In this document: piece after piece, positions 3,432-20,653 of the stretch
How the letters are laid out: each line of letters starts with the position of its first letter
Numbering within the stretch: position 1 is the stretch's first letter
Origin: Promethearchaeia archaeon
Lineage (GTDB): Archaea; Asgardarchaeota; Lokiarchaeia; Sigyniarchaeales; SOKP01
DNA: 32,857 nt
NCBI GenBank assembly: GCA_029856295.1
Contig: JAHQWS010000202.1
Location: forward strand, 1-32,857
Direction: 5' to 3'
Notes under the pieces: generated by a model
Told to the model about the DNA's origin: nothing
The model's input: the letters and a program-made list of their open reading frames with translations, nothing else
The model's database searches: none
Made by a program: the position numbers and the translations under genes

Positions 3432-3466
3432 AAAAATGGAAAAATTATAGTTAAAAAATATAAAAA

Positions 3467-5101: not shown

Positions 5102-6562
5102 TTAGAGATCTTTTGTAACACGCTTTTTTTGATAAATATCCAATAAAGTTGGCATAAACAGTCTATTAAGTTTTTTGTAAATTTTTACGTTGTCTTTAAT
5201 GGGATTAAATTCTTTTTCAAATCGTACCATTTTTTCTATTGCATCATTTAAACTATTGTATTTCTTGCACCCATAAAAACCTAGAATTGCGGCCCCCATT
5301 GCTGCACCATCTCTGTTCTCTGGAACTAAAATTTTTTTTGACATAATATCCGCAAAAATCTGTGCCCATACATCGCTATTCATCGCACCTCCATCCGACT
5401 TTACTTCAGAGACTTTAGCACCTCCAATAGCTTCTAGCATCCCCATATACATCTGCGCACTTAATGCTGCTGATTCCATGATGGCACGTATCATATGGGC
5501 TCTGGTATGGTTCCAGCCTAGACCATGGATGGTTCCTTTTTTTAATATATATAAGGGCACAAATAGTAGTCCTTCACTTCCTGGTTTAATCCCCTCTGCT
5601 TCTTTCGCTAATTCGGCATATACGTTAAGATGTTTTTCTTCACATTCTTTAATTTGTAATTGTGAAAAATTATCTTTAAACCATTTGAATGCCATCCCTG
5701 TACCAGGTATCGCTCCCTCAATAATCCATTTGCCTTTAATAACATGCGGTAGAGGGAAAATGGGAATATCTCCTGGAGGAAGTTTTGCTGGTTCAGTACC
5801 TGTAACATAATCCACACAAGTTACCGTACCCGTAGTTACTTTTGCTTGTCCTTTCTCAATAACTCCTAATCCTAAGGCAGCAGATTGTTGATCTCCTCCT
5901 CCTAAAACTACGGGAACATTACTTTTAAGCCCTAAATTTCCTGCAGCTTCGCTTGATAATTCACCAATGATTTCTCCGGGTATATGGAGTTCTGGCCATA
6001 ATTCGATGGGTATACCATATAATTCAGCAAGTTTTGGATCCCACTCAAAAGTTTCTTTGCTCATAATTCCTTGAATCCCATTTGTATGATCTGTAACAAA
6101 TAAATCTTTACCGCATAATTTCATGTAAATATATGTATCTGTGAAGAAAATTTTGTAAGTTTGATTATACAAATCAGGCTTGTGGTTTTTGATCCATAGT
6201 ATTTTAGAAACAGTTATTCTTAAATCTTCATCAATAGTTGTATCAAATACCTCTCTCTCATCCATCCATGTTAATGCCGGATGCAAAACTTCCCCCTTCT
6301 TACCAATAATACCAGCAGTTGCCCGTTGAAAAGAAGCACATACTCCAACAATATCGTTAGGATTTACATTTTTTACAGCAATATTACAAGTATTTTTAAC
6401 TGCATTCCACCAAATCATTGGATCTTGTTCAGAAATACCAACTGGCTGTTTTTCAAGTGGATATTCCTCGTAAGCTCTTGCAATTTCTTTTCCATTTATG
6501 TCAAAAATAATAGTTCTTGCCCCTATTGTCCCAATATCAAACACAACTATTAGATCGCTCAT
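5102..6562 (-). CDS. FGGY-family carbohydrate/polyol kinase, array copy 2 (altered phosphate loop)
   Basis: Same architecture as copy 1. Start moved to the ATG at 6562 (MSDLIVVFD), with GGGTGA upstream. The loop reads DIGTIGAR rather than D-x-GTTG(T/S)R, and GGGDQQSAALG replaces ...QQC.... Confidence 0.8.
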   Translation of the reverse strand: MSDLIVVFDIGTIGARTIIFDINGKEIARAYEEYPLEKQPVGISEQDPMIWWNAVKNTCNIAVKNVNPNDIVGVCASFQRATAGIIGKKGEVLHPALTWMDEREVFDTTIDEDLRITVSKILWIKNHKPDLYNQTYKIFFTDTYIYMKLCGKDLFVTDHTNGIQGIMSKETFEWDPKLAELYGIPIELWPELHIPGEIIGELSSEAAGNLGLKSNVPVVLGGGDQQSAALGLGVIEKGQAKVTTGTVTCVDYVTGTEPAKLPPGDIPIFPLPHVIKGKWIIEGAIPGTGMAFKWFKDNFSQLQIKECEEKHLNVYAELAKEAEGIKPGSEGLLFVPLYILKKGTIHGLGWNHTRAHMIRAIMESAALSAQMYMGMLEAIGGAKVSEVKSDGGAMNSDVWAQIFADIMSKKILVPENRDGAAMGAAILGFYGCKKYNSLNDAIEKMVRFEKEFNPIKDNVKIYKKLNRLFMPTLLDIYQKKRVTKDL

Positions 6563-6718
6563 ATTGTTCACCCAAATTAAGTTTAACCAATTATGGATTT
6601 CAAATTAAAAATTAACAAATAAAAGTTCCTTAATTATTAATTTAGATATCTTTCGTATTTTAATCTTTTCATCTGTTTGAGGAAGGTTATTCCTTTTTAA
6701 TTTAAAATTTAGAATTAG

Positions 6719-6728
6719 AAAAAAAAAA
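6719..6728 (-). terminator. Oligo-T (T10) tract 8-17 nt downstream of the FGGY copy 3 stop; candidate archaeal intrinsic terminator
   Basis: A10 run on the plus strand at 6719-6728. Oligo-T tracts are the known archaeal termination signal. Confidence 0.35.
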
Positions 6729-6735
6729 TAAGAAT

Positions 6736-8196
6736 TTAAAGACCTTTTGTTACCCGTTTTTTATCAAATATATCTAATACAGTTGGCATAAATAGTCGAT
6801 TAAGTTTTTTGTAAATTTTTACGTTATCCTTTATGGGATTAAATTCTTTTTCGAATCTTACCATTTTTTCAATCGCATCATTAAAACTGCTATATTTCTC
6901 GCATCCGTAAAATCCTAAAATAGCAGCACCTAATGCCGCTCCATCTCTATTCTCTGGAAGGATTATTTTTTTTGACATTATGTCCGCATAAATCTGTGCC
7001 CACAAGTCACTATTCATAGCTCCTCCGTCTGATTTTAATTCAGAGACTTTAGCACCCCCAATAGCTTCTAACATCCCCATATACATTTGCGCACTAAGGG
7101 CTGCTGATTCCATTATCGCACGAATCATATGCGCTCTGGTATGATTCCACCCTAGACCATGGATAGTTCCCTTTCTGAATACATATAAGGGCACAAATAG
7201 TAATCCTTCACTTCCAGGTTTAATATTCTCTGCTTCTTTCGCTAATTCAGCATATACGTTGAGATTTTTTGCTTCGCATTCTTTAGCTTGTAATTGCGAA
7301 AAGTTATCCTTAAACCATTTTAGTGCTGTCCCTGTTCCTGGCATAGCGCCCTCAATAATCCATTTTCCTTTAATAACATGCGGTAATGGGAATATGGGAA
7401 CATCTCCAGCTGGAGTTGCCGGTGTATCACCAGTAACATAATCAACAAATGTTCCAGTTCCGGTAGTTACTTTTGCCTGTCCTTTTTCAATAACTCCTAA
7501 ACCTAAAGCAGCACATTGCTGGTCTCCTCCTCCCAGGATTACAGGGATGTTGCTTTTTAATCCTAGTTCTCCTGCAGCTTCGCTCGATAATTCACCAATT
7601 ATTTCTCCCGGAGTATGGAGTTCTGGCCACAATTCGATTGGTACGCCATATGATTCGGCAAGTTTTGGATCCCAATCTAGAGTTTCCTTGCTCATTATAC
7701 CCATAATCCCATTTGTAGGATCTGTAACAATTAAGTCTTTCCCGCACAATTTCATGTATATGTATGTATCTGGAAAGAATATTTTAGAAGCTTGATTATA
7801 CAGGTCAGGTTTATTGTTTTTGAGCCATAATATTTTAGGAACGGTTCTTCTTAATTCTTCATGATAAGTTGAAGCATCAATTACTTCTCTCTCATCCATC
7901 CATGTAAGTGCTGGATGTAAAACTTTTCCATCCTTATCAATAAGTCCGGCAGTTGCTCGTTGAAAGGAAGCACAAATTCCAATAATTTCATCTGGATTAA
8001 CTTTCTTTACAGCAATATTACAAGTACTTTTAACAGTATTCCACCAAATCATTGGATCTTGTTCAGAAATACCCACTGGTTGCTTCTTAAGAGTATATTC
8101 CTCATAAGCTCTTCCAATCTCTTTCCCATCAATATCAAATATTACTGTTCTTGTGCCAGTAGTCCCAACATCAAATACAACTATTAGATCGCTCAT
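6736..8196 (-). CDS. FGGY-family carbohydrate/polyol kinase, array copy 3
   Basis: FDVGTTGTRT, TWMDERE, GGGDQQCAALGLGV and SDGGAM. Start at the ATG at 8196, with ATGTGA upstream. A T10 tract follows the stop. Confidence 0.85.
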   Translation of the reverse strand: MSDLIVVFDVGTTGTRTVIFDIDGKEIGRAYEEYTLKKQPVGISEQDPMIWWNTVKSTCNIAVKKVNPDEIIGICASFQRATAGLIDKDGKVLHPALTWMDEREVIDASTYHEELRRTVPKILWLKNNKPDLYNQASKIFFPDTYIYMKLCGKDLIVTDPTNGIMGIMSKETLDWDPKLAESYGVPIELWPELHTPGEIIGELSSEAAGELGLKSNIPVILGGGDQQCAALGLGVIEKGQAKVTTGTGTFVDYVTGDTPATPAGDVPIFPLPHVIKGKWIIEGAMPGTGTALKWFKDNFSQLQAKECEAKNLNVYAELAKEAENIKPGSEGLLFVPLYVFRKGTIHGLGWNHTRAHMIRAIMESAALSAQMYMGMLEAIGGAKVSELKSDGGAMNSDLWAQIYADIMSKKIILPENRDGAALGAAILGFYGCEKYSSFNDAIEKMVRFEKEFNPIKDNVKIYKKLNRLFMPTVLDIFDKKRVTKGL

Positions 8197-8351
8197 GTTG
8201 TTCACATGAAAAAGGTTTAACTAATTATGGATTTCAAATTAATAGCTAAAAAATAAAAATGTATTAATTATTAAATCAGATATCTCCATATTTTAATCTT
8301 TTCTTCGGGCTAAGGAAAGTTATTCCTTTTTAAATTAAAATTTAGAATTAG

Positions 8352-8360
8352 AAAAAAAAA
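8352..8360 (-). terminator. Oligo-T (T9) tract downstream of the FGGY copy 4 stop; candidate archaeal intrinsic terminator
   Basis: A9 run on the plus strand at 8352-8360, in the same relative position as the 6719-6728 tract. Confidence 0.35.
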
Positions 8361-8367
8361 TAAAAAT

Positions 8368-9828
8368 TTAAAGATCTTTTGTTACACGCTTTTTATCAAA
8401 AATATCCAATAAAGTTGGCATAAACAGTCTATTAAGTTTTTTGTAAATTTTTACATTATCCTTTATGGGATTAAATTCCTTTTCGAATCTGACCATTTTT
8501 TCAATTGCATCATTAAAACTACTATATTTCTTGCAACCGTAAAATCCTAGAATTGCAGCGCCTAAAGCGGCACCATCTCTGTTCTCTGGAAGGATAATCT
8601 TTTTTGACATGATATCCGCAAAAATCTGTGCCCATAAGTCGCTATTCATCGCACCTCCATCCGACTTTACTTCGGAGACTTTACCACCCCCAATAGCTTC
8701 CAACATACCTAGGTACATCTGCGCACTTAAAGCTGCTGATTCCATAATGGCTCGTATCATATGTGCTCTGGTATGGTTCCATCCTAAACCATGAATGGTT
8801 CCTTTCCTAAACACATATAAGGGAACAAACAATAATCCCTCACTTCCGGGTTTTATCCCTTCTGCTTCTTTAGATAATTCGTTATATACATTAAGATGTT
8901 TTTCATCACATTCTTTGGTTTGTAATTGTGAAAAGTTATCCTTAAACCATTGTAACGCGGTCCCTGTACCAGGTATCGCACCCTCAAGAATCCATTTACC
9001 TTTAATAACATGCGGTAGTGGGAATATTGGATAATCTCCTGCGGGAGTTACTGGTGCATCTCCAGTAACATAATCAACAAATGTACCCGTTCCAGTAGTT
9101 ACTTTTGCTTGCCCTTTCTCGATTACCCCTAAACCCAATGCAGCACATTGTTGGTCTCCTCCTCCCAAAACTACGGGAACATTACTTTTAAGCCCTAAAT
9201 TTCCTGCTGCTTCGCTTGTTAACTCCCCAATCACTTCTCCTGGAGTACGGAGGTCTGGCCATAATTCGATTGGTATACCATATGATTCAGCAAGTTTTGG
9301 ATCCCAGTCTAAAGTTTCTTTACTCATAATTCCAAAGATACCGTTTGTGGGATCTGTAACACATACTTCATTACCACATAATTTCATGTATATGTATGTA
9401 TCTGGGAAGAAAATTTTTGAGGCCTGACTATATAAATCAGGTTTATTATTTTTAAGCCATAGAATCTTAGGAACTGTTCTTCTTAGTTCTTCGTGATATG
9501 TTGACGTATCAACTACTTCTCTCTCATCCATCCATGTTAATGCCGGATGCAAAACTTCTCCATTTTTATCAATAAGCCCCGCAGTTGCTCGTTGAAAGGA
9601 CGCACAAATTCCAATTACATCATCCGAATTTATATTCTTTACAGCAGTATTACACGTACTTTTAACAGCATTCCACCAAATCATTGGATCTTGTTCAGAA
9701 ATACCAACTGGTTGTTTTTCAAGAGTATATTCTTCGTAAGCTCTTGCTATTTCTTTTCCATTAATATCAAAAATAACCGTCCTTGTTCCAGTCGTCCCAG
9801 AATCAAACACAACTATTAAATCGCTCAT
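8368..9828 (-). CDS. FGGY-family carbohydrate/polyol kinase, array copy 4
   Basis: FDSGTTGTRT, TWMDERE and GGGDQQCAALGLGV. Start at the ATG at 9828, with AAGTGGA upstream. A T9 tract follows the stop. It differs from copy 3 at 7 of the first 60 ORF-track residues. Confidence 0.85.
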   Translation of the reverse strand: MSDLIVVFDSGTTGTRTVIFDINGKEIARAYEEYTLEKQPVGISEQDPMIWWNAVKSTCNTAVKNINSDDVIGICASFQRATAGLIDKNGEVLHPALTWMDEREVVDTSTYHEELRRTVPKILWLKNNKPDLYSQASKIFFPDTYIYMKLCGNEVCVTDPTNGIFGIMSKETLDWDPKLAESYGIPIELWPDLRTPGEVIGELTSEAAGNLGLKSNVPVVLGGGDQQCAALGLGVIEKGQAKVTTGTGTFVDYVTGDAPVTPAGDYPIFPLPHVIKGKWILEGAIPGTGTALQWFKDNFSQLQTKECDEKHLNVYNELSKEAEGIKPGSEGLLFVPLYVFRKGTIHGLGWNHTRAHMIRAIMESAALSAQMYLGMLEAIGGGKVSEVKSDGGAMNSDLWAQIFADIMSKKIILPENRDGAALGAAILGFYGCKKYSSFNDAIEKMVRFEKEFNPIKDNVKIYKKLNRLFMPTLLDIFDKKRVTKDL

Positions 9829-9884
9829 TTTATCCACTTCAGAAAGTTTAATATCAATTATTTGTTTAATTTCAATTTTTCAAA

Positions 9885-9950
9885 TTATAAAGCTTTAATT
9901 AATAATTCAGCGATATCTATTATTTTAATTTTTTCTTTATCTTCTCCCAT
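9885..9950 (-). pseudogene. 22-codon relic of a second CCG-type Fe-S subunit gene: start codon and 3' end fused by an internal deletion
   Basis: Reads MGEDKEKIKIIDIAELLIKAL*. The intact paralogue (11534-12802) starts MGEILKK and ends GDKENIKIIDIAELLIKAL*. About 45 nt (9885-9929) are identical to 11534-11578. The ATG abuts the upstream oxidase stop (TAAATG) exactly as in the intact pair at 12800-12805. Confidence 0.8.
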
Positions 9951-11432
9951 TTAACTTTCCATTCCTTCATCCCAGGGACTTTCATAAATTTTCCCTGGAT
10001 TTAGGATATTATTCGGATCAAGCAACTTTTTGATAGATTTTAACGTTTCAAAAGCTTTTCCCCATTCCACAGGCATCCAATGACTTCTCGTGATCCCAAC
10101 GCCGTGATGGTGACTAAAAGATCCACCAGCATCTTCTACTACCTTAACAACTGTATTCCACACTTCTTGATAGAATTCAAGGTCAGTTTTTTCTTCCGGA
10201 GGTATTCCAGCAAATGTAAAATAAAAACCTATTCCGTTCGGATAAAAGTGTGATATATGAGCTGTCATCATTATAACACCTTTGACTTTTTTAGTAGTTT
10301 CTAAAACAGAATGATACATATTCGCTGCATTATCCCATAAAAATCCAATTTCTATAGTATCGGCAACCATCTTTAAAGTTGGAGCGAAGGAAGTTTCTGT
10401 TACTCTGAATCTTGTTTCAAACCAATGATTTACGGGCTCCTCTCCACAATCAATACCATTATTTTTTTCACAAGTCTCTCTTGTAATTATTGCTTCAAGA
10501 TCAACCAATTTTTTAACTCCCTCACACACAAAAACAACCATAACTTTATTCTTCGCATTTTCGATATGACCAAAATGCCTATACGTTTCATCAGCATCGT
10601 ATATTCGAATAACAGCGGGATAAATCTGCTGCCTTAATATTTGTCTTGTCGCTTCTAACGAATCTTCAAAGGTGGTGAATGCATAAGAAATAAGCGCTCT
10701 CTTTTCAGGAAAAGGCCAAATTTTTAGTGTAGCTTTAGTTACTATTCCCAATGTACCCTCATTTCCTATGAATAATTTATCCAGTTGAGGACCGGTCGAT
10801 GCCCTAGCAATTGTTTTAAATTTGATAATATCTCCTTGAGGTAAAACTAATTCCATGCCCATTACTATATCCTCGATTTTGCCGTATTTAGAAGAAAATT
10901 GTCCTGCAGCTCTATGAGCTATCCATCCTCCAACAGAGGATGTATAAAGTGATTGCGGAATATGACCTCCTGTATAACCTTTTGCGTTCAAATATCTTTC
11001 TAAATTCATTCCATTTGTACCTGCCTCTACAGTAACAGTTAAATCTTTATCATTAATTTCTAAAATTTTATTGAACTTTTTCATATCGAGAATAATTCCG
11101 CCATAAATGGCTATTGCTCCCCCTACAGCTCCAGAACCTTCCGAAAATGGAATAACAGGAATTCCTTCTTCGTTTGCTAATTTTAAAATCGAGGAAATTT
11201 GTTCTGGAGTCTCAGGCCAGACAATAAAATCGGGAAGTGCCGTGAGTTTACCTTCCAGAGTCCAATTAAATGCTAAAAGAGTGGTGTCTTTATTATATGC
11301 CATAATATCAATTTCATTATCTGATACATTGGCATTACCAACAATTTTGCTTAGTTTTTCCTTAATTTTTGGTTTGTTTTCAATTATAACTCGATTATCT
11401 TTATAAATTAATTCAAAATTCTCTATATTCAT
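9951..11432 (-). CDS. FAD-linked oxidase-family flavoprotein, alkyl-DHAP synthase (AGPS)-like, copy B
   Basis: FAD_binding_4-type N-domain (PDFIVWPETPEQISSILKLANEEGIPVIPFSEGSG). AGPS-like blocks GYTGGHIPQSLYTSSVGGWIAHRAAG, STGPQLDKLFIGNEGTLGIVTKATLKI, FYFTFAG, GGSFSHHHGVG (HHH codons at 10104-10112) and LDPNNILNPGK. The start is probably the ATG at 11432 (MNIENF); the ORF-track start at 11441 is a TTG. Confidence 0.8.
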   Translation of the reverse strand: MNIENFELIYKDNRVIIENKPKIKEKLSKIVGNANVSDNEIDIMAYNKDTTLLAFNWTLEGKLTALPDFIVWPETPEQISSILKLANEEGIPVIPFSEGSGAVGGAIAIYGGIILDMKKFNKILEINDKDLTVTVEAGTNGMNLERYLNAKGYTGGHIPQSLYTSSVGGWIAHRAAGQFSSKYGKIEDIVMGMELVLPQGDIIKFKTIARASTGPQLDKLFIGNEGTLGIVTKATLKIWPFPEKRALISYAFTTFEDSLEATRQILRQQIYPAVIRIYDADETYRHFGHIENAKNKVMVVFVCEGVKKLVDLEAIITRETCEKNNGIDCGEEPVNHWFETRFRVTETSFAPTLKMVADTIEIGFLWDNAANMYHSVLETTKKVKGVIMMTAHISHFYPNGIGFYFTFAGIPPEEKTDLEFYQEVWNTVVKVVEDAGGSFSHHHGVGITRSHWMPVEWGKAFETLKSIKKLLDPNNILNPGKIYESPWDEGMES

Positions 11433-11462
11433 GGAAATCAAAATTTATAATTTTAATACTTT

Positions 11463-11470
11463 AATATAAA
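11463..11470 (-). promoter_or_regulatory. Candidate TATA box (TTTATATT) for oxidase copy B
   Basis: TTTATATT lies about 30 nt upstream of the ATG at 11432, which implies a very short leader or none. The same element and spacing occur upstream of copy A. Confidence 0.35.
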
Positions 11471-11533
11471 TTAACAAGATATAATTAAAATATTGCTTAA
11501 ATCATATATTAAAAATAAAAAGATTAGAGGTTT

Positions 11534-12802
11534 TTATAAAGCTTTAATTAATAATTCAGCGATATCTATTATTTTAATGTTTTCTTTATCACCTTCACTG
11601 AGCCCATAAGCTAAACCTAACTCACATAGAGGACACGCAGATAAGAACACGTTCGAACCCGTTTCTTTCAATTCATTAACTCGATTCTTGGCTTCTTTGA
11701 TTGCTAATGATCTGTCTGCCCAATGGGCTGTACCACTCCAACCGCAGCAATGAACAGAATCTTTATTATACATTGGTTCTGATATTTCAAGGCCGGGGAT
11801 TTTATTTAGAATAGCTCTTATTGAAGTAGTATCATTTAAGTTTCTCGCAATAAGACAAGGATCATGAATCGTTATTTTGCTAAATTCGTCACTCACATTC
11901 TTTTCAAATTTGAGTTTACCCTCGTCAATTAATTGCTTGATGTATTCTACTATGTGGATAACTTTTGTTCCAATTTCGATTCCTGCTTTTTGATACCTAC
12001 TCGTTAGCGTTACAACGCACCCTGGACAATCAGATACAACAACATTAGCTCCTGTCTTTTCGATCAAGTCCTTATTCCTATTTGCAAAATCTTTAGCAGT
12101 TTCTAAATCCCTGATATTAAATGCTGGACCCCCACAACATACCTTAGTTTCTAAATTTGTTGAGAATCTTACACCTGCTTTTTTTAATAGTTCAATATTA
12201 GCTTTTACAACTTCAGGAAATTTCATAGATTCACAGCCGATATAATAATAAACTTCATCATTACCATCAGTTTCTATGTTTTCTATTCCCTTTTCCTTAT
12301 ATGTCTCATAAATATTATGATCCTCAATGGTATTTGTCTTTTTTAATTTATCAATTTGCTCTTTGCAGTAATCTGGCATCAGACCTTTATCGTTGAGATC
12401 ATCACGAACCGTCTCAAGCAAAGAAACTACTGAAAACTCAAAAGGACACCATATCTTGCAGGATTCCTCATTTGAGCATTTATACATTAAATCAATAAAT
12501 GCCTTATTTTCCTCTTTTGAAGGATCAATCTTTCCAATCGTAAGATAATATCCAATTCTTGCCTTGTAAGCGGGACTCATTGTTTCCTTCTGTTCTGCTT
12601 GAAGAGTTCCGCAGTCAAAACGGCACATATTTGGACAAAGCATACAATTTACTAAATTTTTTATATCTGCTTTGTACTCTCCTTCTGGAAAGAAGTTTTT
12701 GTCCCGCATTCGGAAGTTCTTCATAAATAATCTCTTAACGTCGCGATCCATCGCATCGATTATTGGTCCCATCCACTTGTACTTCTTTAATATTTCGCCC
12801 AT
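11534..12802 (-). CDS. (Fe-S)-binding CCG-domain protein, GlcF/GlpC/HdrD-like electron-transfer subunit
   Basis: 422 aa. N-terminal Cys clusters CMLCPNMCRFDC and CSNEESCKIWCP. Two CCG-type modules: YYIGCESM...KVCCGGP...SDCPGC and HDPCLIARN...VHCCGWSG...SACPLC. Its ATG directly abuts the upstream oxidase stop. Confidence 0.8.
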   Translation of the reverse strand: MGEILKKYKWMGPIIDAMDRDVKRLFMKNFRMRDKNFFPEGEYKADIKNLVNCMLCPNMCRFDCGTLQAEQKETMSPAYKARIGYYLTIGKIDPSKEENKAFIDLMYKCSNEESCKIWCPFEFSVVSLLETVRDDLNDKGLMPDYCKEQIDKLKKTNTIEDHNIYETYKEKGIENIETDGNDEVYYYIGCESMKFPEVVKANIELLKKAGVRFSTNLETKVCCGGPAFNIRDLETAKDFANRNKDLIEKTGANVVVSDCPGCVVTLTSRYQKAGIEIGTKVIHIVEYIKQLIDEGKLKFEKNVSDEFSKITIHDPCLIARNLNDTTSIRAILNKIPGLEISEPMYNKDSVHCCGWSGTAHWADRSLAIKEAKNRVNELKETGSNVFLSACPLCELGLAYGLSEGDKENIKIIDIAELLIKAL

Positions 12803-14284
12803 TTAATTTTCCCCTCCTTTTTCCCAAGGACTTTCATAAATTTTCCCTGGATTTAATATATTATTCGGATCGAGTAAATTTTTTATGGCTTTTAAAGTAT
12901 CAAAAGCTTTTCCCCATTCCACAGGCATCCACTTAGACCTATTGATTCCCACACCGTGGTGATGACCAAAAGATCCACCTGCGTCTTCTACTGCTTTAAC
13001 AATTGTATTCCAAACCTCTTGATAAAACTGAAAGTCAGATTTCTCTTGTGGTGGTATTCCAGCAAAAGTAAAATAAAAACCCACTCCGTTAGGATAAAAA
13101 TGAGAAACATGAGCAGTTATCATTATGACTCCTTTCACATTTTTTGCAGCTTCTACGACAGAATGATACATTTCTGCAGCCTTATCCCATAGAAATCCAA
13201 TCTCAATTGTATCGGCGACCATTTTAAAGGTTGGTGTTGATGAGGTCTCTGTTACTCTGAATCTAGTTTCAAACCAGTGTTCGACAGGTTCTTCGCCGCA
13301 TTCAATACCATTATTTTTTTCACAAGTCTCTCTTGTAATTGTAGCTTCTAAATCTACAAGTCTTTCAATACCCTCACAGACAAATACAACCATAACGCTA
13401 TCCTTAGCTTTTTCTATATGACCAAAATGTCTATAGGTTTCATCCGCATCATAAATTCGAATAACAGCGGGATATATTTGCTGCCTTAATATTTGTCTTG
13501 TTGCTTCTAAAGAATCTTCAAAGGTGGGGAAAGCATAAGAAATAAATGCTCTCTTTTCAGGATAAGGCCAAATTTTCAGCGTGGCTTTGGTTACTATTCC
13601 CAATGTACCCTCATTTCCTATAAATAATTTATCCAGTTGAGGACCTGTGGATGCTCTGGCAATAGTCTTAAATTTTATAACGTCTCCCTTTGGTAAAACT
13701 AATTCCATGCCCATTACCATATCCTCGGTTTTCCCATATTTAGATGAAAATTGCCCTGCAGCCCTATGCGCTATCCACCCTCCTACAGAGGAAGTGTAAA
13801 GAGATTGCGGAATATGGCCTCCCGTGTAACCTTTAGCATTCAAATATCGCTCCAAATTCATTCCATTTGTACCAGCTTCTACTGTAACAGTTAAATCTTT
13901 ATCATTTATTTCCAAGATTTTATTAAACTTCTTCATGTCGAGAATTATTCCTCCATAAATAGGTATTGCCCCTCCAACAACTCCAGAACCTTCTGAAAAT
14001 GGAATCACAGGAATCTTTTCTTCATTCGCTAATTTCAAAATAGAAGAAATCTGTTCTGGAGTCTCAGGCCATACAATAAAATCCGGCAATGCGGCAATTT
14101 TTCCTTCGAGAGTCCAGTTAAGTGTTATAAGAGTGGTGTCTTTGTTATAAGCCAGTATATCAATTTCATTATCCGATACATTTTCATTACCAACAATTTC
14201 GCCTAGTCTTAACTTAATTTTTGGTTTGTCTTTAATTATAACTCGACTATCCTTATAGATTAATTCAAAATTCTCTATATTCAT
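12803..14284 (-). CDS. FAD-linked oxidase-family flavoprotein, alkyl-DHAP synthase (AGPS)-like, copy A
   Basis: Close paralogue of copy B with long identical stretches, e.g. GGIILDMKKFNKILEINDKDLTVTVEAGTNGMNLERYLNAKGYTGGHIPQSLYTSSVGGWIAHRAAGQFSSKYGK. GGSFGHHHGVG has its HHH codons at 12956-12964. The start is probably the ATG at 14284; the ORF-track start at 14293 is a TTG. Confidence 0.8.
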   Translation of the reverse strand: MNIENFELIYKDSRVIIKDKPKIKLRLGEIVGNENVSDNEIDILAYNKDTTLITLNWTLEGKIAALPDFIVWPETPEQISSILKLANEEKIPVIPFSEGSGVVGGAIPIYGGIILDMKKFNKILEINDKDLTVTVEAGTNGMNLERYLNAKGYTGGHIPQSLYTSSVGGWIAHRAAGQFSSKYGKTEDMVMGMELVLPKGDVIKFKTIARASTGPQLDKLFIGNEGTLGIVTKATLKIWPYPEKRAFISYAFPTFEDSLEATRQILRQQIYPAVIRIYDADETYRHFGHIEKAKDSVMVVFVCEGIERLVDLEATITRETCEKNNGIECGEEPVEHWFETRFRVTETSSTPTFKMVADTIEIGFLWDKAAEMYHSVVEAAKNVKGVIMITAHVSHFYPNGVGFYFTFAGIPPQEKSDFQFYQEVWNTIVKAVEDAGGSFGHHHGVGINRSKWMPVEWGKAFDTLKAIKNLLDPNNILNPGKIYESPWEKGGEN

Positions 14285-14313
14285 AAAAATCAAAATTTAT
14301 TATTTTATTACTT

Positions 14314-14321
14314 TAATATAA
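14314..14321 (-). promoter_or_regulatory. Candidate TATA box (TTTATATT) for oxidase copy A
   Basis: Same octamer, flanking sequence and ~30-nt spacing to the ATG as at 11463-11470, so the upstream region was duplicated along with the gene. Confidence 0.35.
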
Positions 14322-14396
14322 ATTTACAAGATAAAATTAAAATTTTTATTAAATTATATTAACAACTAAAATAAATTTACGTATTTTATTTTCGAG

Positions 14397-15884
14397 TCAA
14401 TAAATAGTTTCTCCGGTAATTCTATTTACCTTCAAATGCCTGAACTTTGCTGTAGCTGCATTTGTTATTTTCTCAATATTAGAGATCCTATCTACTAATT
14501 CTTCAGGAAATAAATATTTTGCTAAATGAATCATCATCTGCTTGGTTTCTATACAATTGAGAAGTTTTAAACTCTCACAGGAATAAAAAATCTCGCTTAC
14601 TAAATCATAATTAGTATCTTGTGAAAAATTAAGAATTTCCAAATTTCTATAAATTCTCGAAATGATATTTCCAAGAATGTCATAGTCACTTAAATTGTCA
14701 AGTGAGTTCCTCATATAATTGCAAAATAGAACGTAGTATGTGGCTTCGGAAGATACAAAGCCATCACGGTATTGCTTTATACCTTCAACTGTGATTCTTG
14801 TATCAATCTCATCAATTAGAGCTTTAATTTTTTGATTATCTAATTTTTGATAGGCTCCAACAATATGATAGATTTTCAATATAACTACTAGCTGTGATGT
14901 CTCCAAATTTTTTAAATAGTTAGGTTCAAAAAATCTTTCTTCAATTTTCATACTTTTACTAATTTCTTCATTAGTTAGCCATAAATTTGCTAATTGAGTA
15001 GTTTTAAAGTAGCAGTAGACTCTATCAGTGGCTTCAATAACAGGCGCTTCGAACTCATCAATAGTTTCCTCATATAAATTTAATAAAAACTTCTTTACTT
15101 CCAAATAGTCGATTTCTACGTCTAGATGCGTCGCCAAATAAACTCCACAAAAATAAAGATCGGGATTTTTTAAAGTTACTAAAGGTATCGTATCTAACCA
15201 TTCATTAAGATTATTTTTGAGATATGTTTTGATATGAGAAAAATCGAAAATTTTCTGTAAATGAAAGAAATCTATAATTCTATAAATTAAATACAATAAC
15301 TGTAATTTATCCTTTGGATCCTTTAAATCTTCTAAACTTTCTATCTTATCCTTGTTTTCTCTAAATTTTTTTATTATCTTATCTCGAATCTGTATATATT
15401 TACGTAGGTTCTCAGTTTTTTCAGGAGATCTCTTTAATAATTTCTTTAAATTTATGAGTTCAAAGATAAATTCAAAGGGAAGTAAACCACTAGATTTCAA
15501 ATTTAACACTATTGTAACTATCTTATTATCTACAAGATAATCTACTATTTTTTCTAAGAAAATTTCATAAATTATTGGCATAATTTTTTTTTCATATAAT
15601 TGAAGCGCATTTGTGATAATTCCTACATCCTTCCGTTCAATTTCCAAGTATGGGTCTAAAAATTTATCTTCAATTTCTTTTACGTCAAACCCTAATTGTA
15701 ATAATTCTTTTTTTAGTACTAAAAGAATCTTTTCAAGGAGTTTATTCAATTCTGACCTTTCTAATGATTTATCTTCTAAAAAAGAGTCTAGTTTCTCCCG
15801 AAAGTATTTGTCAGTATTATCATAAAAGAGATCAATCTCATTAGAGTAGAGATCTAAGATATTAAATAATCCTTGAAAAATCAT
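14397..15884 (-). CDS. Hypothetical protein, 495 aa, predicted all-helical cytoplasmic; no recognisable catalytic motif
   Basis: Long ORF with an ATG start and a composition typical of real genes in this window. It heads the co-directional oxidase/kinase cluster. The C-terminal half shows about 5 loosely repeated ~45-50-aa units with an aromatic-rich helix (LYFCGVYLATHL, RVYCYFKTTQLANL, EATYYVLFCNYMRNSL, SEIFYSCESLKLLNC). Confidence 0.6.
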   Translation of the reverse strand: MIFQGLFNILDLYSNEIDLFYDNTDKYFREKLDSFLEDKSLERSELNKLLEKILLVLKKELLQLGFDVKEIEDKFLDPYLEIERKDVGIITNALQLYEKKIMPIIYEIFLEKIVDYLVDNKIVTIVLNLKSSGLLPFEFIFELINLKKLLKRSPEKTENLRKYIQIRDKIIKKFRENKDKIESLEDLKDPKDKLQLLYLIYRIIDFFHLQKIFDFSHIKTYLKNNLNEWLDTIPLVTLKNPDLYFCGVYLATHLDVEIDYLEVKKFLLNLYEETIDEFEAPVIEATDRVYCYFKTTQLANLWLTNEEISKSMKIEERFFEPNYLKNLETSQLVVILKIYHIVGAYQKLDNQKIKALIDEIDTRITVEGIKQYRDGFVSSEATYYVLFCNYMRNSLDNLSDYDILGNIISRIYRNLEILNFSQDTNYDLVSEIFYSCESLKLLNCIETKQMMIHLAKYLFPEELVDRISNIEKITNAATAKFRHLKVNRITGETIY

Positions 15885-16184: not shown

Positions 16185-17609
16185 ATGACGTCAAATATTT
16201 TTGGCACATCTGGTATAAGAAGAGTTTTTCAAAATTACAGCGAATCAGATCTTTTATTTACACCACAAATGGCTTTAGATGTGGGGCTAGCTTTAGGATC
16301 TGTCTTAAAAGGTAATGGTAAAGTAGTTATAGGGAAAGATATTAGAACTTCAGCTTTGCCTGTAGAATATGCATTAATTTCAGGAATAGTTAGCGCAGGA
16401 TGCAATGTGTGGGCTTTAGGAATTGTTACTACTCCGACGTTAGCAATGTCATTACGCTATTTGAATGCTGATGCAGGTGTTATGATTACTGCATCTCATA
16501 ATACTCCTGAATATATAGGGTTAAAAATGTGGAATCGTTCTGGTATTGGGTTTTCCCCTGAACAAGAGGAAGAAATTTCGCGAATATATGATCAGAAAGA
16601 TTTCGTTAAAATTGATTGGGATCAAATTGGCAAAATCACGCAGATCAATGATATTAATGACAAGCATATTTCAGATATAACTGATCAGATTATGTTTGAT
16701 GGAAGTAAATTAAACGTAATCGTTGATCCAGGCAATGGCTCTGGATGTGAGATTGTTCCAAAACTACTAAGTAATTATAATATAAACATTATGACTATCA
16801 ATGCACAAATGGATGGTAGGTTCCCTGGAAGGCTCTCAGAGCCAAGCGAGAAAAATTTAATACAAATTTCTAAGTTTTTGAAAATCTCTCCGCAGGAAGA
16901 TATTGGGATTGCACTTGATGGAGACGCGGATAGAGTAATATTCTTAGATGAAACGGGTGAAATTGTAGACCCCGTCAGATTATTAGCGCTTATGGCAAAA
17001 TATTTTGTTCAAGAAAATAAAGATAAATTATCTAAAGATGATTTGAAAGTATCTACGCCAGTAAATTCATCGAGTTTGGTTGAAGATGTCTTAGAACCCC
17101 TTGGCTGTAAAATAATAAGAACAGAAGTAGGAGATATTAAGGTAGCATTAGCTTTACAAGATGGCGGCTTTTTAGGCGGAGAAACCTCCGGTACTTATAT
17201 ATGGCCTAAATTTCATTTAGGTCCAGATTCAATAGTTACTATTGCTGTTATATTACAAATGATTGTTAAAACTGGTAAAAGTTTAAAGGAATTACTAAAG
17301 GAAATTCCTCAATATCCATACTATCGTAATCAATTTAAGTTAAAAAATGATATTCCTTTTACAGAAGAGATAAATCAAAAAATTATTGATGAAATGAAAG
17401 ATTCTTTTGATTCTCTTGGTAAAAATATAAAGAATATCAATAAATTGGACGGCGTGAGGTTTGATTATGCTGATGGATGGATTTTAATAAGACGCTCAGG
17501 AACAAGTCCGTATTTAAGGATTTCTGGTGAATCTTCCATAGACATAAATAGTTCTATTGAGATGAACAAGATTGCCGAACAAAAAATGCAAAAATTAGAC
17601 ATAATTTAA
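16185..17609 (+). CDS. glmM: Phosphoglucosamine mutase / phosphohexomutase (archaeal GlmM type)
   Basis: Phosphoserine loop TASHNTPEYIGLK (Thr where most homologues have SHNP), metal loop ALDGDADRV, sugar loop GGETSG, phosphate loop RRSGTSPYLRI. AAGAGGA lies 7 nt upstream of the ATG. Confidence 0.8.
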   Translation: MTSNIFGTSGIRRVFQNYSESDLLFTPQMALDVGLALGSVLKGNGKVVIGKDIRTSALPVEYALISGIVSAGCNVWALGIVTTPTLAMSLRYLNADAGVMITASHNTPEYIGLKMWNRSGIGFSPEQEEEISRIYDQKDFVKIDWDQIGKITQINDINDKHISDITDQIMFDGSKLNVIVDPGNGSGCEIVPKLLSNYNINIMTINAQMDGRFPGRLSEPSEKNLIQISKFLKISPQEDIGIALDGDADRVIFLDETGEIVDPVRLLALMAKYFVQENKDKLSKDDLKVSTPVNSSSLVEDVLEPLGCKIIRTEVGDIKVALALQDGGFLGGETSGTYIWPKFHLGPDSIVTIAVILQMIVKTGKSLKELLKEIPQYPYYRNQFKLKNDIPFTEEINQKIIDEMKDSFDSLGKNIKNINKLDGVRFDYADGWILIRRSGTSPYLRISGESSIDINSSIEMNKIAEQKMQKLDII

Positions 17610-17675
17610 AATGTATCAAACAAAAATAGTGAAAATTGCTTCTTTTATCTAAATTATCTTTTTTTATAACTTAAT

Positions 17676-18635
17676 TTAATTAAATATTTCAAATTCTATT
17701 CCTTTTTGTTCTAATGTTTCTTTATTGGCTAGGAATTCTCGACCTGCGATCTTATCTAATATATAAATTAGGTTACCGCCATTTTGAGAGTATATTTGGC
17801 CAAATGAAATAGGAACATCCGGAGTTGGGTCCCCCAATAAAGATTCTGTTACTACTTCAACCTTACGTTCTCCGTTAGCTAGCAGAATCACTGTTTTAGC
17901 TTTATAAACCAATTCAGCTCCCATGCTGACAGCGTATCTTGGACTTTCATTCTCCGAAGGGAAATGACCGTCTATTACAGCATTAGAAACTGTATTGTCA
18001 TCAAGTTTTACTAATAGAACATTGCTACCTTCGAAAGGAATCCCTGACTCGTGAAACGCTACATGACCGCGACCTCCAACACCTATTATTTGTACATCAA
18101 TACCACCAACATTTTCGATTTTTCGGGCATAATCCTCCTGTACTGTCTTACGGATCCAAGCTAAATATTTTGAACTTGGATTATCTTTAATCACAATTGA
18201 TTTTCCAGCGTCTTTGCCCAGTTCGGTCCAATCTTCCTTATTAATTTCGAGTTCATTTATGAATTTTTCTTGATCAACCAAACAACCGTAAGGTACACTT
18301 GTTTCAATGAATTTATTTTCAAGGAGACTAAAAAATTCTTGAATCATAAAATAGCTGTAACTTTCTGGATGAATTGTGCGTTGCTGACAATTCTCACCTG
18401 GTAAGCCAATGTATTCATCTAGGTTAAAAGATCGGATAAGTTTGCAATCGAATTCACCGGCGTTGGCCATTTTAGCTAGATTTTTATAAAGACCAGTTGG
18501 CGAATTTCCTGTTGCAAGTCCTAATACGCATTCTTTTTGTTGTTTCAAGATTTGGATAATTTTTTCTTTAACGATTTGTGCGGCAACTTGGCTCATACTT
18601 TCAAAATTTTCTGTTATTATAATCTTAATAGTCAT
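17676..18635 (-). CDS. nagB: Glucosamine-6-phosphate deaminase/isomerase family protein (NagB-like, long form)
   Basis: LGLATGNSPTGLY, FNLDEYIGL and IGVGGRGHVAFHESG are NagB/6-phosphogluconolactonase-superfamily blocks. At 319 aa it carries an extra ~45-aa segment between the second and third blocks. Confidence 0.7.
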   Translation of the reverse strand: MTIKIIITENFESMSQVAAQIVKEKIIQILKQQKECVLGLATGNSPTGLYKNLAKMANAGEFDCKLIRSFNLDEYIGLPGENCQQRTIHPESYSYFMIQEFFSLLENKFIETSVPYGCLVDQEKFINELEINKEDWTELGKDAGKSIVIKDNPSSKYLAWIRKTVQEDYARKIENVGGIDVQIIGVGGRGHVAFHESGIPFEGSNVLLVKLDDNTVSNAVIDGHFPSENESPRYAVSMGAELVYKAKTVILLANGERKVEVVTESLLGDPTPDVPISFGQIYSQNGGNLIYILDKIAGREFLANKETLEQKGIEFEIFN

Positions 18636-18788
18636 TTAAACTGCTTCAAATTGTTTCATATTAAATTTTAAACTAAAAAAAGGATAATCTAATAAAAACT
18701 TATTGAAATTGATTATATTGAATATATTAATTATATCTTCTTTTAACTATAATAATCTTAATATGAGAGTTTATCTTTTCTATTAATA

Positions 18789-20639
18789 ATGTGTGGAATA
18801 TTTGGAATTATAACTAATCAAGATATATCTATAGGGAATGTTATTTTACAAGGAATTAAGCGATTAGAATATCGTGGATATGATTCTTGTGGAATTGTTT
18901 CACAATATAACTCCAAATTAATTGTTAAAAAAGATTCTGGAAAAATTGATGATATTATAAAAAGAATTGACTTGACAAATTTTCCAAATGGATCTAAGCT
19001 TTCCCTTGCTCATACTCGATGGGCAACACATGGACCCCCTACTAAAGAAAATAGCCATCCTCATTTAGATTGTTCAGGCGAAATTGCAGTGGTGCATAAT
19101 GGAATTATAGATAATTTTATGGAATTAAGAAAAGAGCTTATATCAAGAGGTCACATTTTTAAATCGGATACAGATACAGAGGTTATTCCACATTTAATTG
19201 AAGATAATATGAAAGATGGCTTAAATATTAAAGATGCTACTATGAAAGCTTTAAAAAAATGTAAAGGTGCTTACGCACTTGCTGTGTGTCATGCTAAAAT
19301 ACATGATTCAATTATTGTAGTTCGAAGGGAATCTCCATTAGTAATTGGAATAGAAGAAGGAAAAACAACGTATTGTGCCTCGGACATTCCCGCTTTTTTA
19401 CCTTTAACAAGAAAATGTTATATTATGGATGATGATGAACTTGCCGTTCTAAAAGCTGGAGATGTTACATTTTTTGATCTCAAAAACAATAATGAACCAA
19501 TTGAAAAGGAAATACAAACTATTGAATGGAATATTGATGCTGCTGAAAAAGGAGGGTATGAACATTTCATGCTAAAAGAAATTTACGAAGAACCGAGGGC
19601 ATTGAAGCAAACTATGATGATTTCTAAAGATATTCTATTAAAATTTGCCAATACTCTAATTTCAGCGCAAAATATTTATATCACAGCAGCAGGTACCTCC
19701 TTTTTTGCAGCATTAGCAGGCAAATTTATCATTACAAAATTTTTAGGCAAATACTTACAAGAAATGGAATGCTCCGAATTTAAAACTCAATTCTCAAATT
19801 CTTTACAAGACAATTCTGTCATTATAGTAATTTCGCAATCAGGTGAAACAATTGATACAATTGAAGCAATTCGTTGGGCAAAAGAGAAAAAAAATGTAAA
19901 AATTCTAGCAATTACAAACGTAGTAGGATCTTCTATCACCAGATATTCTGATCATGTGATAGTAACTCAAGCTGGACCTGAAATTGGCGTTGCCGCAACA
20001 AAAACGTATAGTACTCAAGTGCTAACCCTTGCTTTAATTGCCTTAGAAATAGCAAAAATAAGAAAAATAGAGCCTAATGAGGAAATTAGAAAGTATTATA
20101 ATGCTTTAAATTCCACACCTCAGATTATTGAAAAATTTCTGGAAAAAAACGTTAATTTGCTTAAATATATCGTTAATAATTTAGAAAAAAACTTAAACTA
20201 TTTTTTTTTAGCTCGAGGAATTTCTATCGCAACAGCGAAAGAGGGAGGTCTAAAATTAAAGGAAGTCGCATGTCGCTTTATTGAAGGGTATTCGGCTGCA
20301 TCTGCTAAACATGGACCAATTTCTTTAGTTAGGGAAGGTTTTCCGATTATATTCATCGCACCGCCTGATGATACTTATGAAAGATTAGTTGGAAATGTTA
20401 TGGAATTCAAAGCTAGAGGGGGTACAATTATTTCAGTTGTTGTGGAAAGTGATGTACAGATAACTGAGTTAAGTGATATAACTATTCGGATTCCCCAACC
20501 ACCCGATAAATATCATAACTTATTCAGCCCAATTACTTTTGTACCTGCTTTGCAATTATTAGCTTATTATGCTGCTTTGGCTCATGATTTAGATCCTGAT
20601 AAGCCTCAAAATCTCAGTAAGACTGTAACCGTTCACTAA
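18789..20639 (+). CDS. glmS: Glutamine--fructose-6-phosphate aminotransferase (isomerizing)
   Basis: N-terminal nucleophile MCGIFGI, HTRWATHG, two SIS domains (SQSGETIDT) and the C-terminal tail NLSKTVTVH. Confidence 0.9.
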   Translation: MCGIFGIITNQDISIGNVILQGIKRLEYRGYDSCGIVSQYNSKLIVKKDSGKIDDIIKRIDLTNFPNGSKLSLAHTRWATHGPPTKENSHPHLDCSGEIAVVHNGIIDNFMELRKELISRGHIFKSDTDTEVIPHLIEDNMKDGLNIKDATMKALKKCKGAYALAVCHAKIHDSIIVVRRESPLVIGIEEGKTTYCASDIPAFLPLTRKCYIMDDDELAVLKAGDVTFFDLKNNNEPIEKEIQTIEWNIDAAEKGGYEHFMLKEIYEEPRALKQTMMISKDILLKFANTLISAQNIYITAAGTSFFAALAGKFIITKFLGKYLQEMECSEFKTQFSNSLQDNSVIIVISQSGETIDTIEAIRWAKEKKNVKILAITNVVGSSITRYSDHVIVTQAGPEIGVAATKTYSTQVLTLALIALEIAKIRKIEPNEEIRKYYNALNSTPQIIEKFLEKNVNLLKYIVNNLEKNLNYFFLARGISIATAKEGGLKLKEVACRFIEGYSAASAKHGPISLVREGFPIIFIAPPDDTYERLVGNVMEFKARGGTIISVVVESDVQITELSDITIRIPQPPDKYHNLFSPITFVPALQLLAYYAALAHDLDPDKPQNLSKTVTVH

Positions 20640-20653
20640 TATAAAAACAAATT

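Follow-up and report, generated by a model that had tools for sequence, protein, structure and literature searches.

AGPS-type flavoproteins with a CCG iron-sulfur partner and linked FGGY kinases on a lokiarchaeial contig

We analyzed the whole of contig JAHQWS010000202.1 (32,857 nucleotides, hereafter the window; GenBank assembly GCA_029856295.1), which comes from a Promethearchaeia archaeon placed in the Lokiarchaeia (Sigyniarchaeales, SOKP01). The window has a G+C content of ~33%, and its proteins are 70-95% identical to those of Promethearchaeota/Lokiarchaeia metagenome-assembled genomes (MAGs). Its reverse strand codes for two flavoproteins that bind flavin adenine dinucleotide (FAD) and resemble alkyl-dihydroxyacetone-phosphate synthase (AGPS), for an iron-sulfur (Fe-S) protein with two CCG domains, and for four kinases of the FGGY family. 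We tentatively propose that the flavoprotein and the CCG protein make up a soluble flavin/Fe-S oxidoreductase, putatively acting on the phosphorylated product of the kinases, which would most likely carry a head group of the dihydroxyacetone phosphate (DHAP) or glycerol-phosphate type. The genes concerned are as follows.

12803-14293, (-) strand: AGPS-like FAD flavoprotein, copy A, with FAD_binding_4 (1e-42) and FAD-oxidase_C (8e-35) domains; likely start at the ATG at 14284, giving 493 aa
11534-12802, (-) strand: soluble Fe-S protein of 422 aa, with an N-terminal Cys-cluster region and two CCG domains (CCG x2, 3.5e-28)
9951-11441, (-) strand: AGPS-like FAD flavoprotein, copy B, with FAD_binding_4 and FAD-oxidase_C domains; 87% amino acid identity to copy A
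8368-9837, (-) strand: FGGY kinase 1, with FGGY_N and FGGY_C domains; subfamily unassigned
6736-8205, (-) strand: FGGY kinase 2, 89% identical to kinase 1; tandem unit of ~1634 bp
5102-6571, (-) strand: FGGY kinase 3, 85% identical to kinases 1 and 2
3467-4933, (-) strand: FGGY kinase 4, 69% identical to kinases 1-3

Flavoproteins of the AGPS type

Among solved structures, those closest in sequence to the flavoproteins are the AGPS enzymes of Dictyostelium (2uuu, 1e-62) and guinea pig (4bby, 1e-59), with D-lactate dehydrogenases (D-LDH) behind them at 7e-41 and weaker. The best NCBIfam model is that of GlcD (TIGR00387), but the scores of 220-226 bits compare with a cut-off of 567.9. Residues R279, Y407, and H444-446 align with the catalytic Arg, the catalytic Tyr, and the HHH loop of AGPS, and they are invariant in 40 relatives. 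R279 corresponds to R419 of Cavia and R352 of Dictyostelium (PDB entry 4bc7 carries R419H), and Y407 corresponds to Y578 of Cavia (PDB entry 4bca carries Y578F) and to Y508 of Dictyostelium, the proposed base of AGPS (PMC3509576).

The open reading frames (ORFs) of both flavoproteins are of 496 aa if read from TTG. The listed TTG and GTG starts probably lie three codons too early, and an ATG at codon 4 would give products of 493 aa and 486 aa, equal to the lengths of the homologs. The HHH codons are found at 12956-12964 in copy A (CATCACCAC, inside GGSFGHHHGVG) and at 10104-10112 in copy B (CACCATCAC, inside GGSFSHHHGVG), and the blocks GYTGGHIPQS..SSVGGWIAHRAAGQ, FYFTF, and LDPNNI are also present. 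An earlier, sequence-only reading of this DNA had used these features to assign the flavoproteins to the AGPS type instead of the GlcD/D-LDH type. All of them were reproduced, including the codon positions, the two CCG motifs of the Fe-S protein, its abutment to copy A, and the GDQQ block of the four kinases, and the profile searches proposed at that time matched FAD_binding_4, FAD-oxidase_C, and two CCG domains.

To compare residues, the window proteins were aligned with the proteins of 78 GTDB loci (taken from among the matches listed in the scan of the genome collection), with cluster representatives, and with two eukaryotic AGPS. A 14-residue signature (H160, S164, S183, R279, W340, R344, H395, S397, H398, Y400, Y407, [H/D/E]444, H445, and H446) is common to the Asgard proteins, most of the bacterial proteins, and Dictyostelium AGPS, and it is absent from the GlcD-type relatives. 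The GlcD-type group of loci has Glu, His, and Gly-Glu-His in the same columns, so that E is replaced by R279, H by Y407, G-E-H by H-H-H, and GH..DGN.H by AHxSHxY (AHVSHFY here). Canonical residues (Glu at the ELMD position, GH..DGN.H, and G-E-H-G) were seen in this alignment in the GlcD-type loci L062 and L079, as anticipated by the sequence-only reading, which had placed an E-H-G-I-G-type motif of GlcD-type enzymes where the window proteins have HHH. In a library-wide search that gave 26,218 matches, 1909 of them at E<1e-30, the HHH motif was found in 139 of the 150 best cluster representatives.

A neighbor-joining tree (100 bootstraps; distance-based, with partial eukaryotic AGPS sequences), rooted on loci with the true GlcD signature, grouped the AGPS-type proteins as monophyletic and apart from the GlcD type with a bootstrap of 100. 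Placement within a characterized GlcD/D-LDH clade, which would have counted against the sequence-only reading, was thus not found. The HHH proteins form a clade (bootstrap 94), and the Asgard proteins group with the metagenomic protein P0241 (52% identity) at a bootstrap of 100. Five proteins tried as a GlcD-type outgroup (P0265, P0286, P0315, P0338, and P0361) had to be rejected, as they turned out to be members of the AGPS-type family with D/E-H-H. Together with L019, L021, L024, L027, L029, and L036, they make up a sub-clade (bootstrap 99) in which the HHH loop begins with Asp or Glu instead of His and the other signature residues are kept. Linkage to XylB-like FGGY kinases or to CCG proteins is seen in this sub-clade too.

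The AlphaFold2 model of the flavoprotein (pLDDT 90.6) has AGPS structures as its top Foldseek matches (TM 0.81-0.86 to 4bby/5ae3), but mouse LDHD superposes nearly as well (TM 0.80). Since the fold is almost equally close to both, it does not discriminate between them, and it is the residue signatures that decide. Features specific to AGPS are an N-terminal domain with a gate-keeping helix and a tunnel for a C16 lipid. The N terminus of the window flavoprotein is ~70 aa shorter than that of Dictyostelium AGPS, and where the match to the latter begins, the model has a predicted helix (residues 55-62).

Considering that one catalytic Arg is missing, that the Asgard proteins fall outside the clade of the eukaryotic enzymes, and that no FAR or GNPAT gene lies nearby, we class the window flavoproteins as AGPS-type without orthology to AGPS. 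A separate clade (bootstrap 97) unites the Dictyostelium and Cavia enzymes with sequences of Bacteroidota, Bacillota-like, and actinobacterial origin. Its members have retained the motif PY[IL]RD, which contains R447 of Dictyostelium, whereas the Asgard clade has VTETS at this position. R447 is listed as catalytically important (PMC3509576). No FAR, GNPAT, acyltransferase, or acyl-CoA reductase domains were detected among the called genes of the window and of L001-L007 and L094 (~10 kb on each side).

AGPS has an unusual non-redox flavin mechanism that has been studied in eukaryotes and one myxobacterium. The enzyme (also ADPS, EC 2.5.1.26; 2uuu and 4bby) has the same two-domain fold of the PCMH/VAO type as the window flavoprotein, which shares most of the active-site residues of the Dictyostelium protein. 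However, AGPS is redox-neutral, has no Fe-S partner, and is linked to FAR/GNPAT, whereas the window enzyme is paired with a CCG protein (or fused to one in relatives) and linked to kinases. So far, work on bacterial and archaeal MAGs has gone no further than counting AGPS homologs as putative ether-lipid genes (PMC11868695).

The iron-sulfur partner and the kinases

Flavoprotein copy A and the 422-aa protein abut at TAA|ATG (12802/12803), an arrangement kept in L003, L005, L007, and L094. Both CCG motifs of the Fe-S protein are complete (C190..CCG222..CxxC259 and C316..CCG352..CxxC390), with cysteines at positions 190/222/223/259/262 and 316/352/353/390/393 (PF02754 twice, 3.5e-28). The N-terminal region has seven cysteines in the motifs CxxCPNMCRFDC (residues 53-64) and CX5CX3CP, and it matches Fer4_8 weakly (20.9 bits against a cut-off of 27). 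The first of these motifs has the spacing CxxCxxxCxxxC in place of the ferredoxin spacing CxxCxxCxxxCP, and in the form CxxCPNMC[RK]FxC it is found in the window protein, in P0246 (~522-533), and in L095 (10547-11605). The best NCBIfam models, TfrB (3e-40, 138 versus 385 bits), LdhH, and GlpC (78 versus 278 bits), are all below their cut-offs, and chains of HdrB are among the PDB matches.

The pairing recurs as gene fusions. Two proteins of Bacillota, P0246 and P0399 (894-899 aa), join an AGPS-type flavoprotein to a Fer4_8 domain and two CCG domains, and the full length of the window CCG protein can be aligned with the C-terminal half of P0246 (2e-37). The separate CCG subunit of the bacterial operon at L095 is also homologous to the window protein (1e-47), and the CxxCPNMC[RK]FxC motif is common to all three. 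In addition, a CCG gene adjoins the AGPS-type gene in the closest non-Asgard relatives (P0241, P0242, and P0253) and in several Myxococcota, Planctomycetota, and Spirochaetota loci. Based on the fusions and the orthologous CCG subunits, we regard the flavoprotein/CCG pairing as a conserved functional unit; the sequence-only reading had judged it meaningful from the abutment in the window.

We counted CCG partners separately for GlcD-type and AGPS-type genes, as distinguished by their signatures, and found them beside GlcD-type genes in 7 of the 17 loci. Since they are common there, the architecture itself is a known one, here with a different catalytic subunit. The same layout, an FAD-linked oxidase next to a protein with two CCG domains, is seen in GlcD/GlcF and in D-LDH with an HdrD-like protein (Dld of Desulfovibrio and Archaeoglobus; mouse LDHD, 8jdc; LctD, 7qh2), where the CCG protein has a ferredoxin-like domain and takes up the electrons. 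However, the window enzyme has other residues in the positions with which the GlcD type binds metal and carboxylate, and there is no subunit of the GlcE type, as the second flavoprotein is an 87% identical duplicate. In the family of thiol:fumarate reductase (TfrAB) and heterodisulfide reductase (HdrD-HdrB), TfrAB resembles the window pair in being a soluble flavoprotein with a CCG protein, but the N-terminal Cys motif differs and the flavoprotein is unrelated. A flavoprotein with a CCG protein is thus an architecture already known, while a catalytic subunit of the AGPS type within it, wired to kinases and to GlpA/GlpD-like enzymes, appears to be new.

The four kinases all carry GGGDQQ. They score below the cut-offs of the XylB (248-258 bits, cut-off 380), LsrK (238-249, cut-off 528), and GlpK (178-199, cut-off 590) models; for kinase 1, the respective scores are 258, 238, and 199 bits. 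The glycerol ligands of GlpK are Arg83, Glu84, Tyr135, and Asp245. Compared with 2dpn/3ezw, the window kinases keep Arg83 and Asp245 (the latter in GDQQ), but Glu84 is replaced by Ala (QRA for QRE) and the Tyr135 loop is absent. By these residues and scores, they are kinases other than GlpK. Most FGGY homologs of Loki- and Thorarchaeota have been described as not bona fide glycerol kinases, in genomes that already have a glycerol 3-phosphate (G3P) dehydrogenase of the glpA/D type (PMC6737245, PMC5059525).

We searched for neighboring genes with phmmer seeds on raw ORFs, ~10 kb on each side, a procedure that left 23 genes in high-G+C loci untyped. FGGY genes were found within 3.5 kb and on the same strand in 14 of 45 non-Asgard AGPS-type loci and in 0 of 17 GlcD-type loci. 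In a Pfam tally of the 89 same-strand neighbors of the 24 bacterial loci closest to the Asgard protein, FGGY (10) and DAO (8, 6 of them with the GlpD-type domain DAO_C) take the lead, with PfkB at 3. One representative is a fusion of a PfkB kinase to the flavoprotein, in a cluster with DeoR, DeoC-aldolase, cupin-isomerase, ROK, and ABC sugar genes; another is a fusion of a Cof-type HAD phosphatase to the flavoprotein, followed by an FGGY gene and a GlpD-like gene. Linkage to FGGY genes is therefore specific to AGPS-type genes and recurs across bacterial phyla.

Such fusions and similar arrangements are located at L008 (2556-8027), L092 (2559-8032), and L023. Downstream of the PfkB fusion come genes for an unannotated protein of 432 aa, a DeoC-type aldolase, a cupin GPI, and a ROK kinase. 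In a Streptomyces locus, the oxidase is flanked by DeoC and PfkB genes.

The copy numbers in the window are a local matter. The DNA of the two flavoprotein genes (9942-11520 and 12794-14371) is 85% identical over 1580 bp, including ~78 nt upstream, and the FGGY unit is repeated four times within 3453-9938 with a period of ~1634 bp and 73-80% DNA identity between units (85-89% amino acid identity among kinases 1-3). The relatives L001, L003, L005/L010, L007, L011, and L094 each carry a single flavoprotein gene, a single CCG gene, and 1-2 kinase genes, with the hydrolase gene after them. This order, oxidase-CCG-FGGY(-hydrolase), is kept with a single-copy core in ~10 lokiarchaeial contigs. Since relatives carry the core in single copy, the second oxidase and the array of four kinases stem from a recent, lineage-specific tandem amplification. 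A reading of oxidase-CCG-oxidase as GlcDEF was rejected, given the recent origin of the second oxidase by duplication (85% DNA identity, upstream sequence included) and its absence from relatives. Of the kinase linkage on which the sequence-only reading had built, the association itself stands, given the 14/45 against 0/17 loci and the fusions, while the four-kinase array belongs to this one lineage. The neighborhood survey that had been suggested found linkage to both CCG and kinase genes conserved in relatives and across bacteria.

In L003 and L011, the kinase adjoining the CCG gene belongs to another FGGY subfamily (87-102 bits, versus >740 bits for orthologs). L007 is the nearest relative (CCG protein 93% identical; a 1.8-Mb contig), and there an aldo-keto reductase and DhaK/DhaL, enzymes of the triose level, adjoin the hydrolase. 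Three further genes of the window flank the cluster.

14397-15884, (-) strand: conserved protein of 495 aa, function unassigned, directly upstream of flavoprotein copy A; its membership in the unit is uncertain
2499-3431, (+) strand: aldo-keto reductase (Aldo_ket_red, 7e-40), at the same position in the nearest relatives L007 and L094
1351-2175, (-) strand: alpha/beta-hydrolase of the esterase type (Abhydrolase_1 and Hydrolase_4), conserved as the last gene of the Asgard cluster

The 495-aa ORF, rich in Lys, Glu, Leu, and Ile, gave no Pfam, NCBIfam, or PDB match apart from a sub-threshold one to SWIRM; it is upstream in L003, L005, L007, L010, L011, and L093 and absent in L001 and L094. The closest PDB matches of the aldo-keto reductase are IolS and L-galactose dehydrogenase. 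The hydrolase, which comes after the kinase in L001, L003, L005, L007, and L094, matches only generic esterases in the PDB. None of the subunits of the cluster has a hydrophobic stretch of transmembrane length.

Proposed reaction and its alternatives

The kinase and phosphatase fusions and the neighboring genes make a phosphorylated substrate likely, and the recurrence of the gene set in many bacteria points to a probable role in the conversion of a phosphorylated compound, either a three-carbon one or a small sugar alcohol. In the reaction that we propose, one or more FGGY kinases would phosphorylate a glycerol-like substrate or a small polyol or ketose. The phosphate ester would then be held in the Arg/His/Ser/Tyr-rich pocket of the flavoprotein, as in AGPS, the substrate most likely having a C3 head group of the DHAP or glycerol-phosphate type, and the carbon next to the carbonyl or hydroxyl would be transformed at the flavin N5. 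Two electrons would pass between the flavin and the [4Fe-4S]/CCG clusters of the CCG protein, and between these clusters and a soluble acceptor or donor, such as a disulfide/thiol couple or a ferredoxin-type carrier. As the AGPS catalytic set is kept, the chemistry may start at the carbon alpha to the carbonyl via a flavin N5 adduct, and the Fe-S outlet could resolve that intermediate oxidatively. The resemblance of the CCG subunit to TfrB makes a thiol-driven reduction possible as well. While phosphorylation of the substrate is likely from gene context, its assignment to the C3/DHAP type is a further step of inference.

Several bacterial operons bear on this proposal. At L095 (8297-16492) and L096 (2869-11064), a tight operon with overlapping genes codes for GntR, an AGPS-like flavoprotein, a CCG protein, a GlpA-like protein (DAO and BFD domains), FGGY, Pyr_redox_2, and DUF1667; it unites every partner seen separately elsewhere, and the gene set might form one multi-subunit, possibly bifurcating, complex. 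L009 has the fused oxidase/CCG version, followed by GlpA-like, Pyr_redox_2, and DUF1667 genes, and in L022, L025, L064, and L092 GlpD-like, AGPS-like, and FGGY genes are found together. The GlpD-like neighbors score 290-339 bits (cut-off 360) and the GlpK-like ones ~376 bits (cut-off 590), the latter with QRA[ST]T for QRETT, and the other bacterial partner kinases are XylB-like or unassigned. Since these operons hold the AGPS-like pair beside GlpA- or GlpD-like genes, the pair would work alongside an enzyme resembling G3P dehydrogenase and would not replace it.

A separate locus, L031 (9728-14147), has an AGPS-type gene of the eukaryotic-AGPS clade, preceded by GlpO-II-like, Pyr_redox, and DUF1667 genes and followed by DegV (a fatty-acid-binding protein of the FakB type) and the fatty-acid kinase FakA, a hint at lipids from one locus only.

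GlpABC and the GlpA-like/Nox-like/DUF1667 systems of the Thermococcus/Thermotoga type share with the window cluster a neighboring FGGY gene resembling glycerol kinase and a CCG subunit resembling GlpC, and in Bacillota the AGPS-like pair and the GlpA-like/Pyr_redox_2/DUF1667 trio share an operon. However, the substrate flavoprotein of the window is of the PCMH/AGPS type and not of the DAO type, and no membrane anchor or quinone site is evident. The erythritol pathway of Brucella uses an FGGY kinase (EryA) and a GlpD-like dehydrogenase (EryB), which are paralogs of GlpK and GlpD acting on a polyol other than glycerol, and its logic is akin to that of the sub-threshold GlpK-like and GlpD-like neighbors of the bacterial AGPS-like genes. 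To our knowledge, no AGPS-like or CCG component belongs to the erythritol pathway.

Some of the evidence weighs against an oxidoreductase of C3 phosphates. In the bacterial operons with their own GlpA- or GlpD-like dehydrogenase, the conversion of G3P to DHAP is probably not the AGPS-like step. The partner kinases span at least three FGGY subfamilies plus PfkB, and hence the substrate need not be a C3 compound. AGPS is redox-neutral, so that the retention of its catalytic set favors covalent chemistry of the AGPS type over simple dehydrogenation. All the related Asgard contigs share a wider synteny (GlmS, phosphohexomutase, and purine genes) and represent one lineage whatever their taxonomic labels; those labeled Thor-, Odin-, Heimdall-, Hermod-, and Hodarchaeota have it at ≥70% identity and are not independent evidence of conservation, so that Asgard data alone do not prove a selected linkage. 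Finally, we found no characterized member of this AGPS-type branch or of its CCG pairing in the literature.

The pair could instead be a non-canonical anaerobic G3P dehydrogenase, with an FGGY kinase making G3P and the AGPS-like/CCG pair oxidizing it to DHAP in place of GlpABC/GlpD. The CCG subunit does resemble GlpC, GlcF, and TfrB, the kinases keep the GDQQ block and Arg83, there are triose-level neighbors (the aldo-keto reductase, and DhaK/DhaL in L007), and no DAO-domain ORF is present in the window, nor any DAO-type gene within 10 kb in any Asgard locus. We nevertheless consider this unlikely, as a redundant G3P dehydrogenase is not to be expected beside the GlpA- or GlpD-like flavoprotein of the same operon in L009, L095/L096, L022, L025, L064, and L092, Loki genomes already have an enzyme of the glpA/D type and mostly FGGY proteins that are not glycerol kinases (PMC6737245, PMC5059525), and the window kinases lack Glu84 and the Tyr135 loop. 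The proposal of the sequence-only reading, a pair that replaces GlpABC as its analog, is accordingly weakened by the operons that carry both systems and by kinases that fail the GlpK model (198 versus 590 bits). A very small chance is left to an ordinary dehydrogenase of D-lactate, glycolate, or another D-2-hydroxyacid, built from GlcD and a GlcF/HdrD-like protein as in sulfate reducers and Archaeoglobus, with the kinases unrelated. GlcD is the best NCBIfam model, genes of that type are often paired with CCG proteins, and the fold comes near to mouse LDHD; but the score against that model (220-226 bits, cut-off 568) is low, the GlcD-site positions are replaced in proteins that fall outside the GlcD-type clade, and linkage to FGGY is specific to the AGPS type.

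Covalent AGPS chemistry offers two further accounts. The enzyme might use the N5-DHAP intermediate and the exchange of the C1 O-substituent in a catabolic or salvage direction: a kinase would phosphorylate a 1-O-substituted glycerol (alkylglycerol, monoacylglycerol, or similar), a GlpA/GlpD-like enzyme or the flavin/CCG pair would convert the product to 1-O-substituted DHAP, and the AGPS-like enzyme would release the substituent to leave DHAP. This seems improbable to us, although the catalytic signature is complete save for one Arg, AGPS is able to release the fatty acid and accepts alternative acceptors (PMC3509576), the Asgard cluster keeps a hydrolase of the esterase type, and L031 has DegV/FakB and FakA; moreover, the sub-cut-off scores of the bacterial GlpK- and GlpD-like neighbors mark them as paralogs and not housekeeping glycerol enzymes, and the kinases are without Glu84. 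A Fe-S/CCG subunit on a redox-neutral enzyme would be left unexplained, the contexts elsewhere are of the sugar type (PfkB fusion, DeoC aldolase, cupin isomerase, ROK kinase, and sugar ABC transporters), R447 of Dictyostelium is missing in the Asgard clade, and the Fak linkage is seen in one locus only. More doubtful still is an oxygen-independent pathway in which the AGPS-like enzyme would strip the O-substituent from C1 of a DHAP derivative, in concert with a kinase of its own and with an oxidation that is either GlpA/GlpD-like or coupled to Fe-S clusters. Such a pathway would degrade or recycle esters and ethers of glycerol (alkylglycerols, and possibly the ether-lipid cores of archaea or bacteria), and this lokiarchaeon would have amplified it to two oxidases and four kinases to scavenge sedimentary lipids. 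We regard as extremely unlikely that the window proteins are bona fide AGPS orthologs making 1-O-alkyl-DHAP for fatty-alcohol ether lipids. The JGI annotation name is alkyldihydroxyacetonephosphate synthase, R279, Y407, and HHH are conserved, and AGPS homologs have been noted in archaeal MAGs (PMC11868695). However, the proteins are only 28-30% identical to AGPS, they lie outside the 97% clade of the Dictyostelium and Cavia enzymes and lack the Arg of PY[IL]RD, no FAR, GNPAT, or acyltransferase gene is found in any Asgard locus (~10 kb on each side), and the Fe-S partner and the kinases would not be accounted for. By comparison, the validated MXAN_1676 of M. xanthus and human AGPS share 42% identity, and the M. 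xanthus gene has a FAR-GNPAT fusion as its neighbor (PMC9131029).

Whichever reaction is catalyzed, proteins with the AGPS signature form a prokaryotic family of very large size (1909 cluster representatives at E<1e-30). Its members are repeatedly linked to FGGY/PfkB kinases, GlpA/GlpD-like dehydrogenases, and phosphatases, and those of anaerobes also to a dedicated Fe-S/CCG subunit. Once the reaction is defined, thousands of genes now annotated as "FAD-binding oxidoreductase" or, probably wrongly, as "alkyldihydroxyacetonephosphate synthase" could be given a function, and the metabolism of glycerol or polyol phosphates in anaerobes would gain a step. For Asgard archaea, the reaction would bear on claims of ether lipids or bacterial-type lipids based on metagenomes and on feeding on C3 compounds or lipids in sediments.

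Other genes of the window

Scans for bacterial-type promoters and terminators in the window did no better than on shuffled sequences, with models that are not applicable to an archaeon, and searches of the window for tRNA and Rfam families gave no matches. Upstream of the cluster, a hexosamine/UDP-sugar group (16185-24288) contains a phosphohexomutase (16185-17609), a protein of the NagB-like glucosamine-6-phosphate isomerase family (17676-18635), GlmS (18789-20639), a 440-aa ORF with no Pfam match (20654-21976), and an NTP-transferase with hexapeptide repeats (22999-24288). In every related contig, GlmS and the mutase keep their synteny with the oxidase cluster. Two paralogous genes for HGD-D (the D component of 2-hydroxyacyl-CoA dehydratase) and three ORFs of the MaoC/hot-dog dehydratase type are distributed over 24420-25464, 28186-28620, and 29423-32268, and their domains suggest functions in acyl-CoA or amino acid fermentation. 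A gene of the alpha-amylase family is located at 25466-26971.

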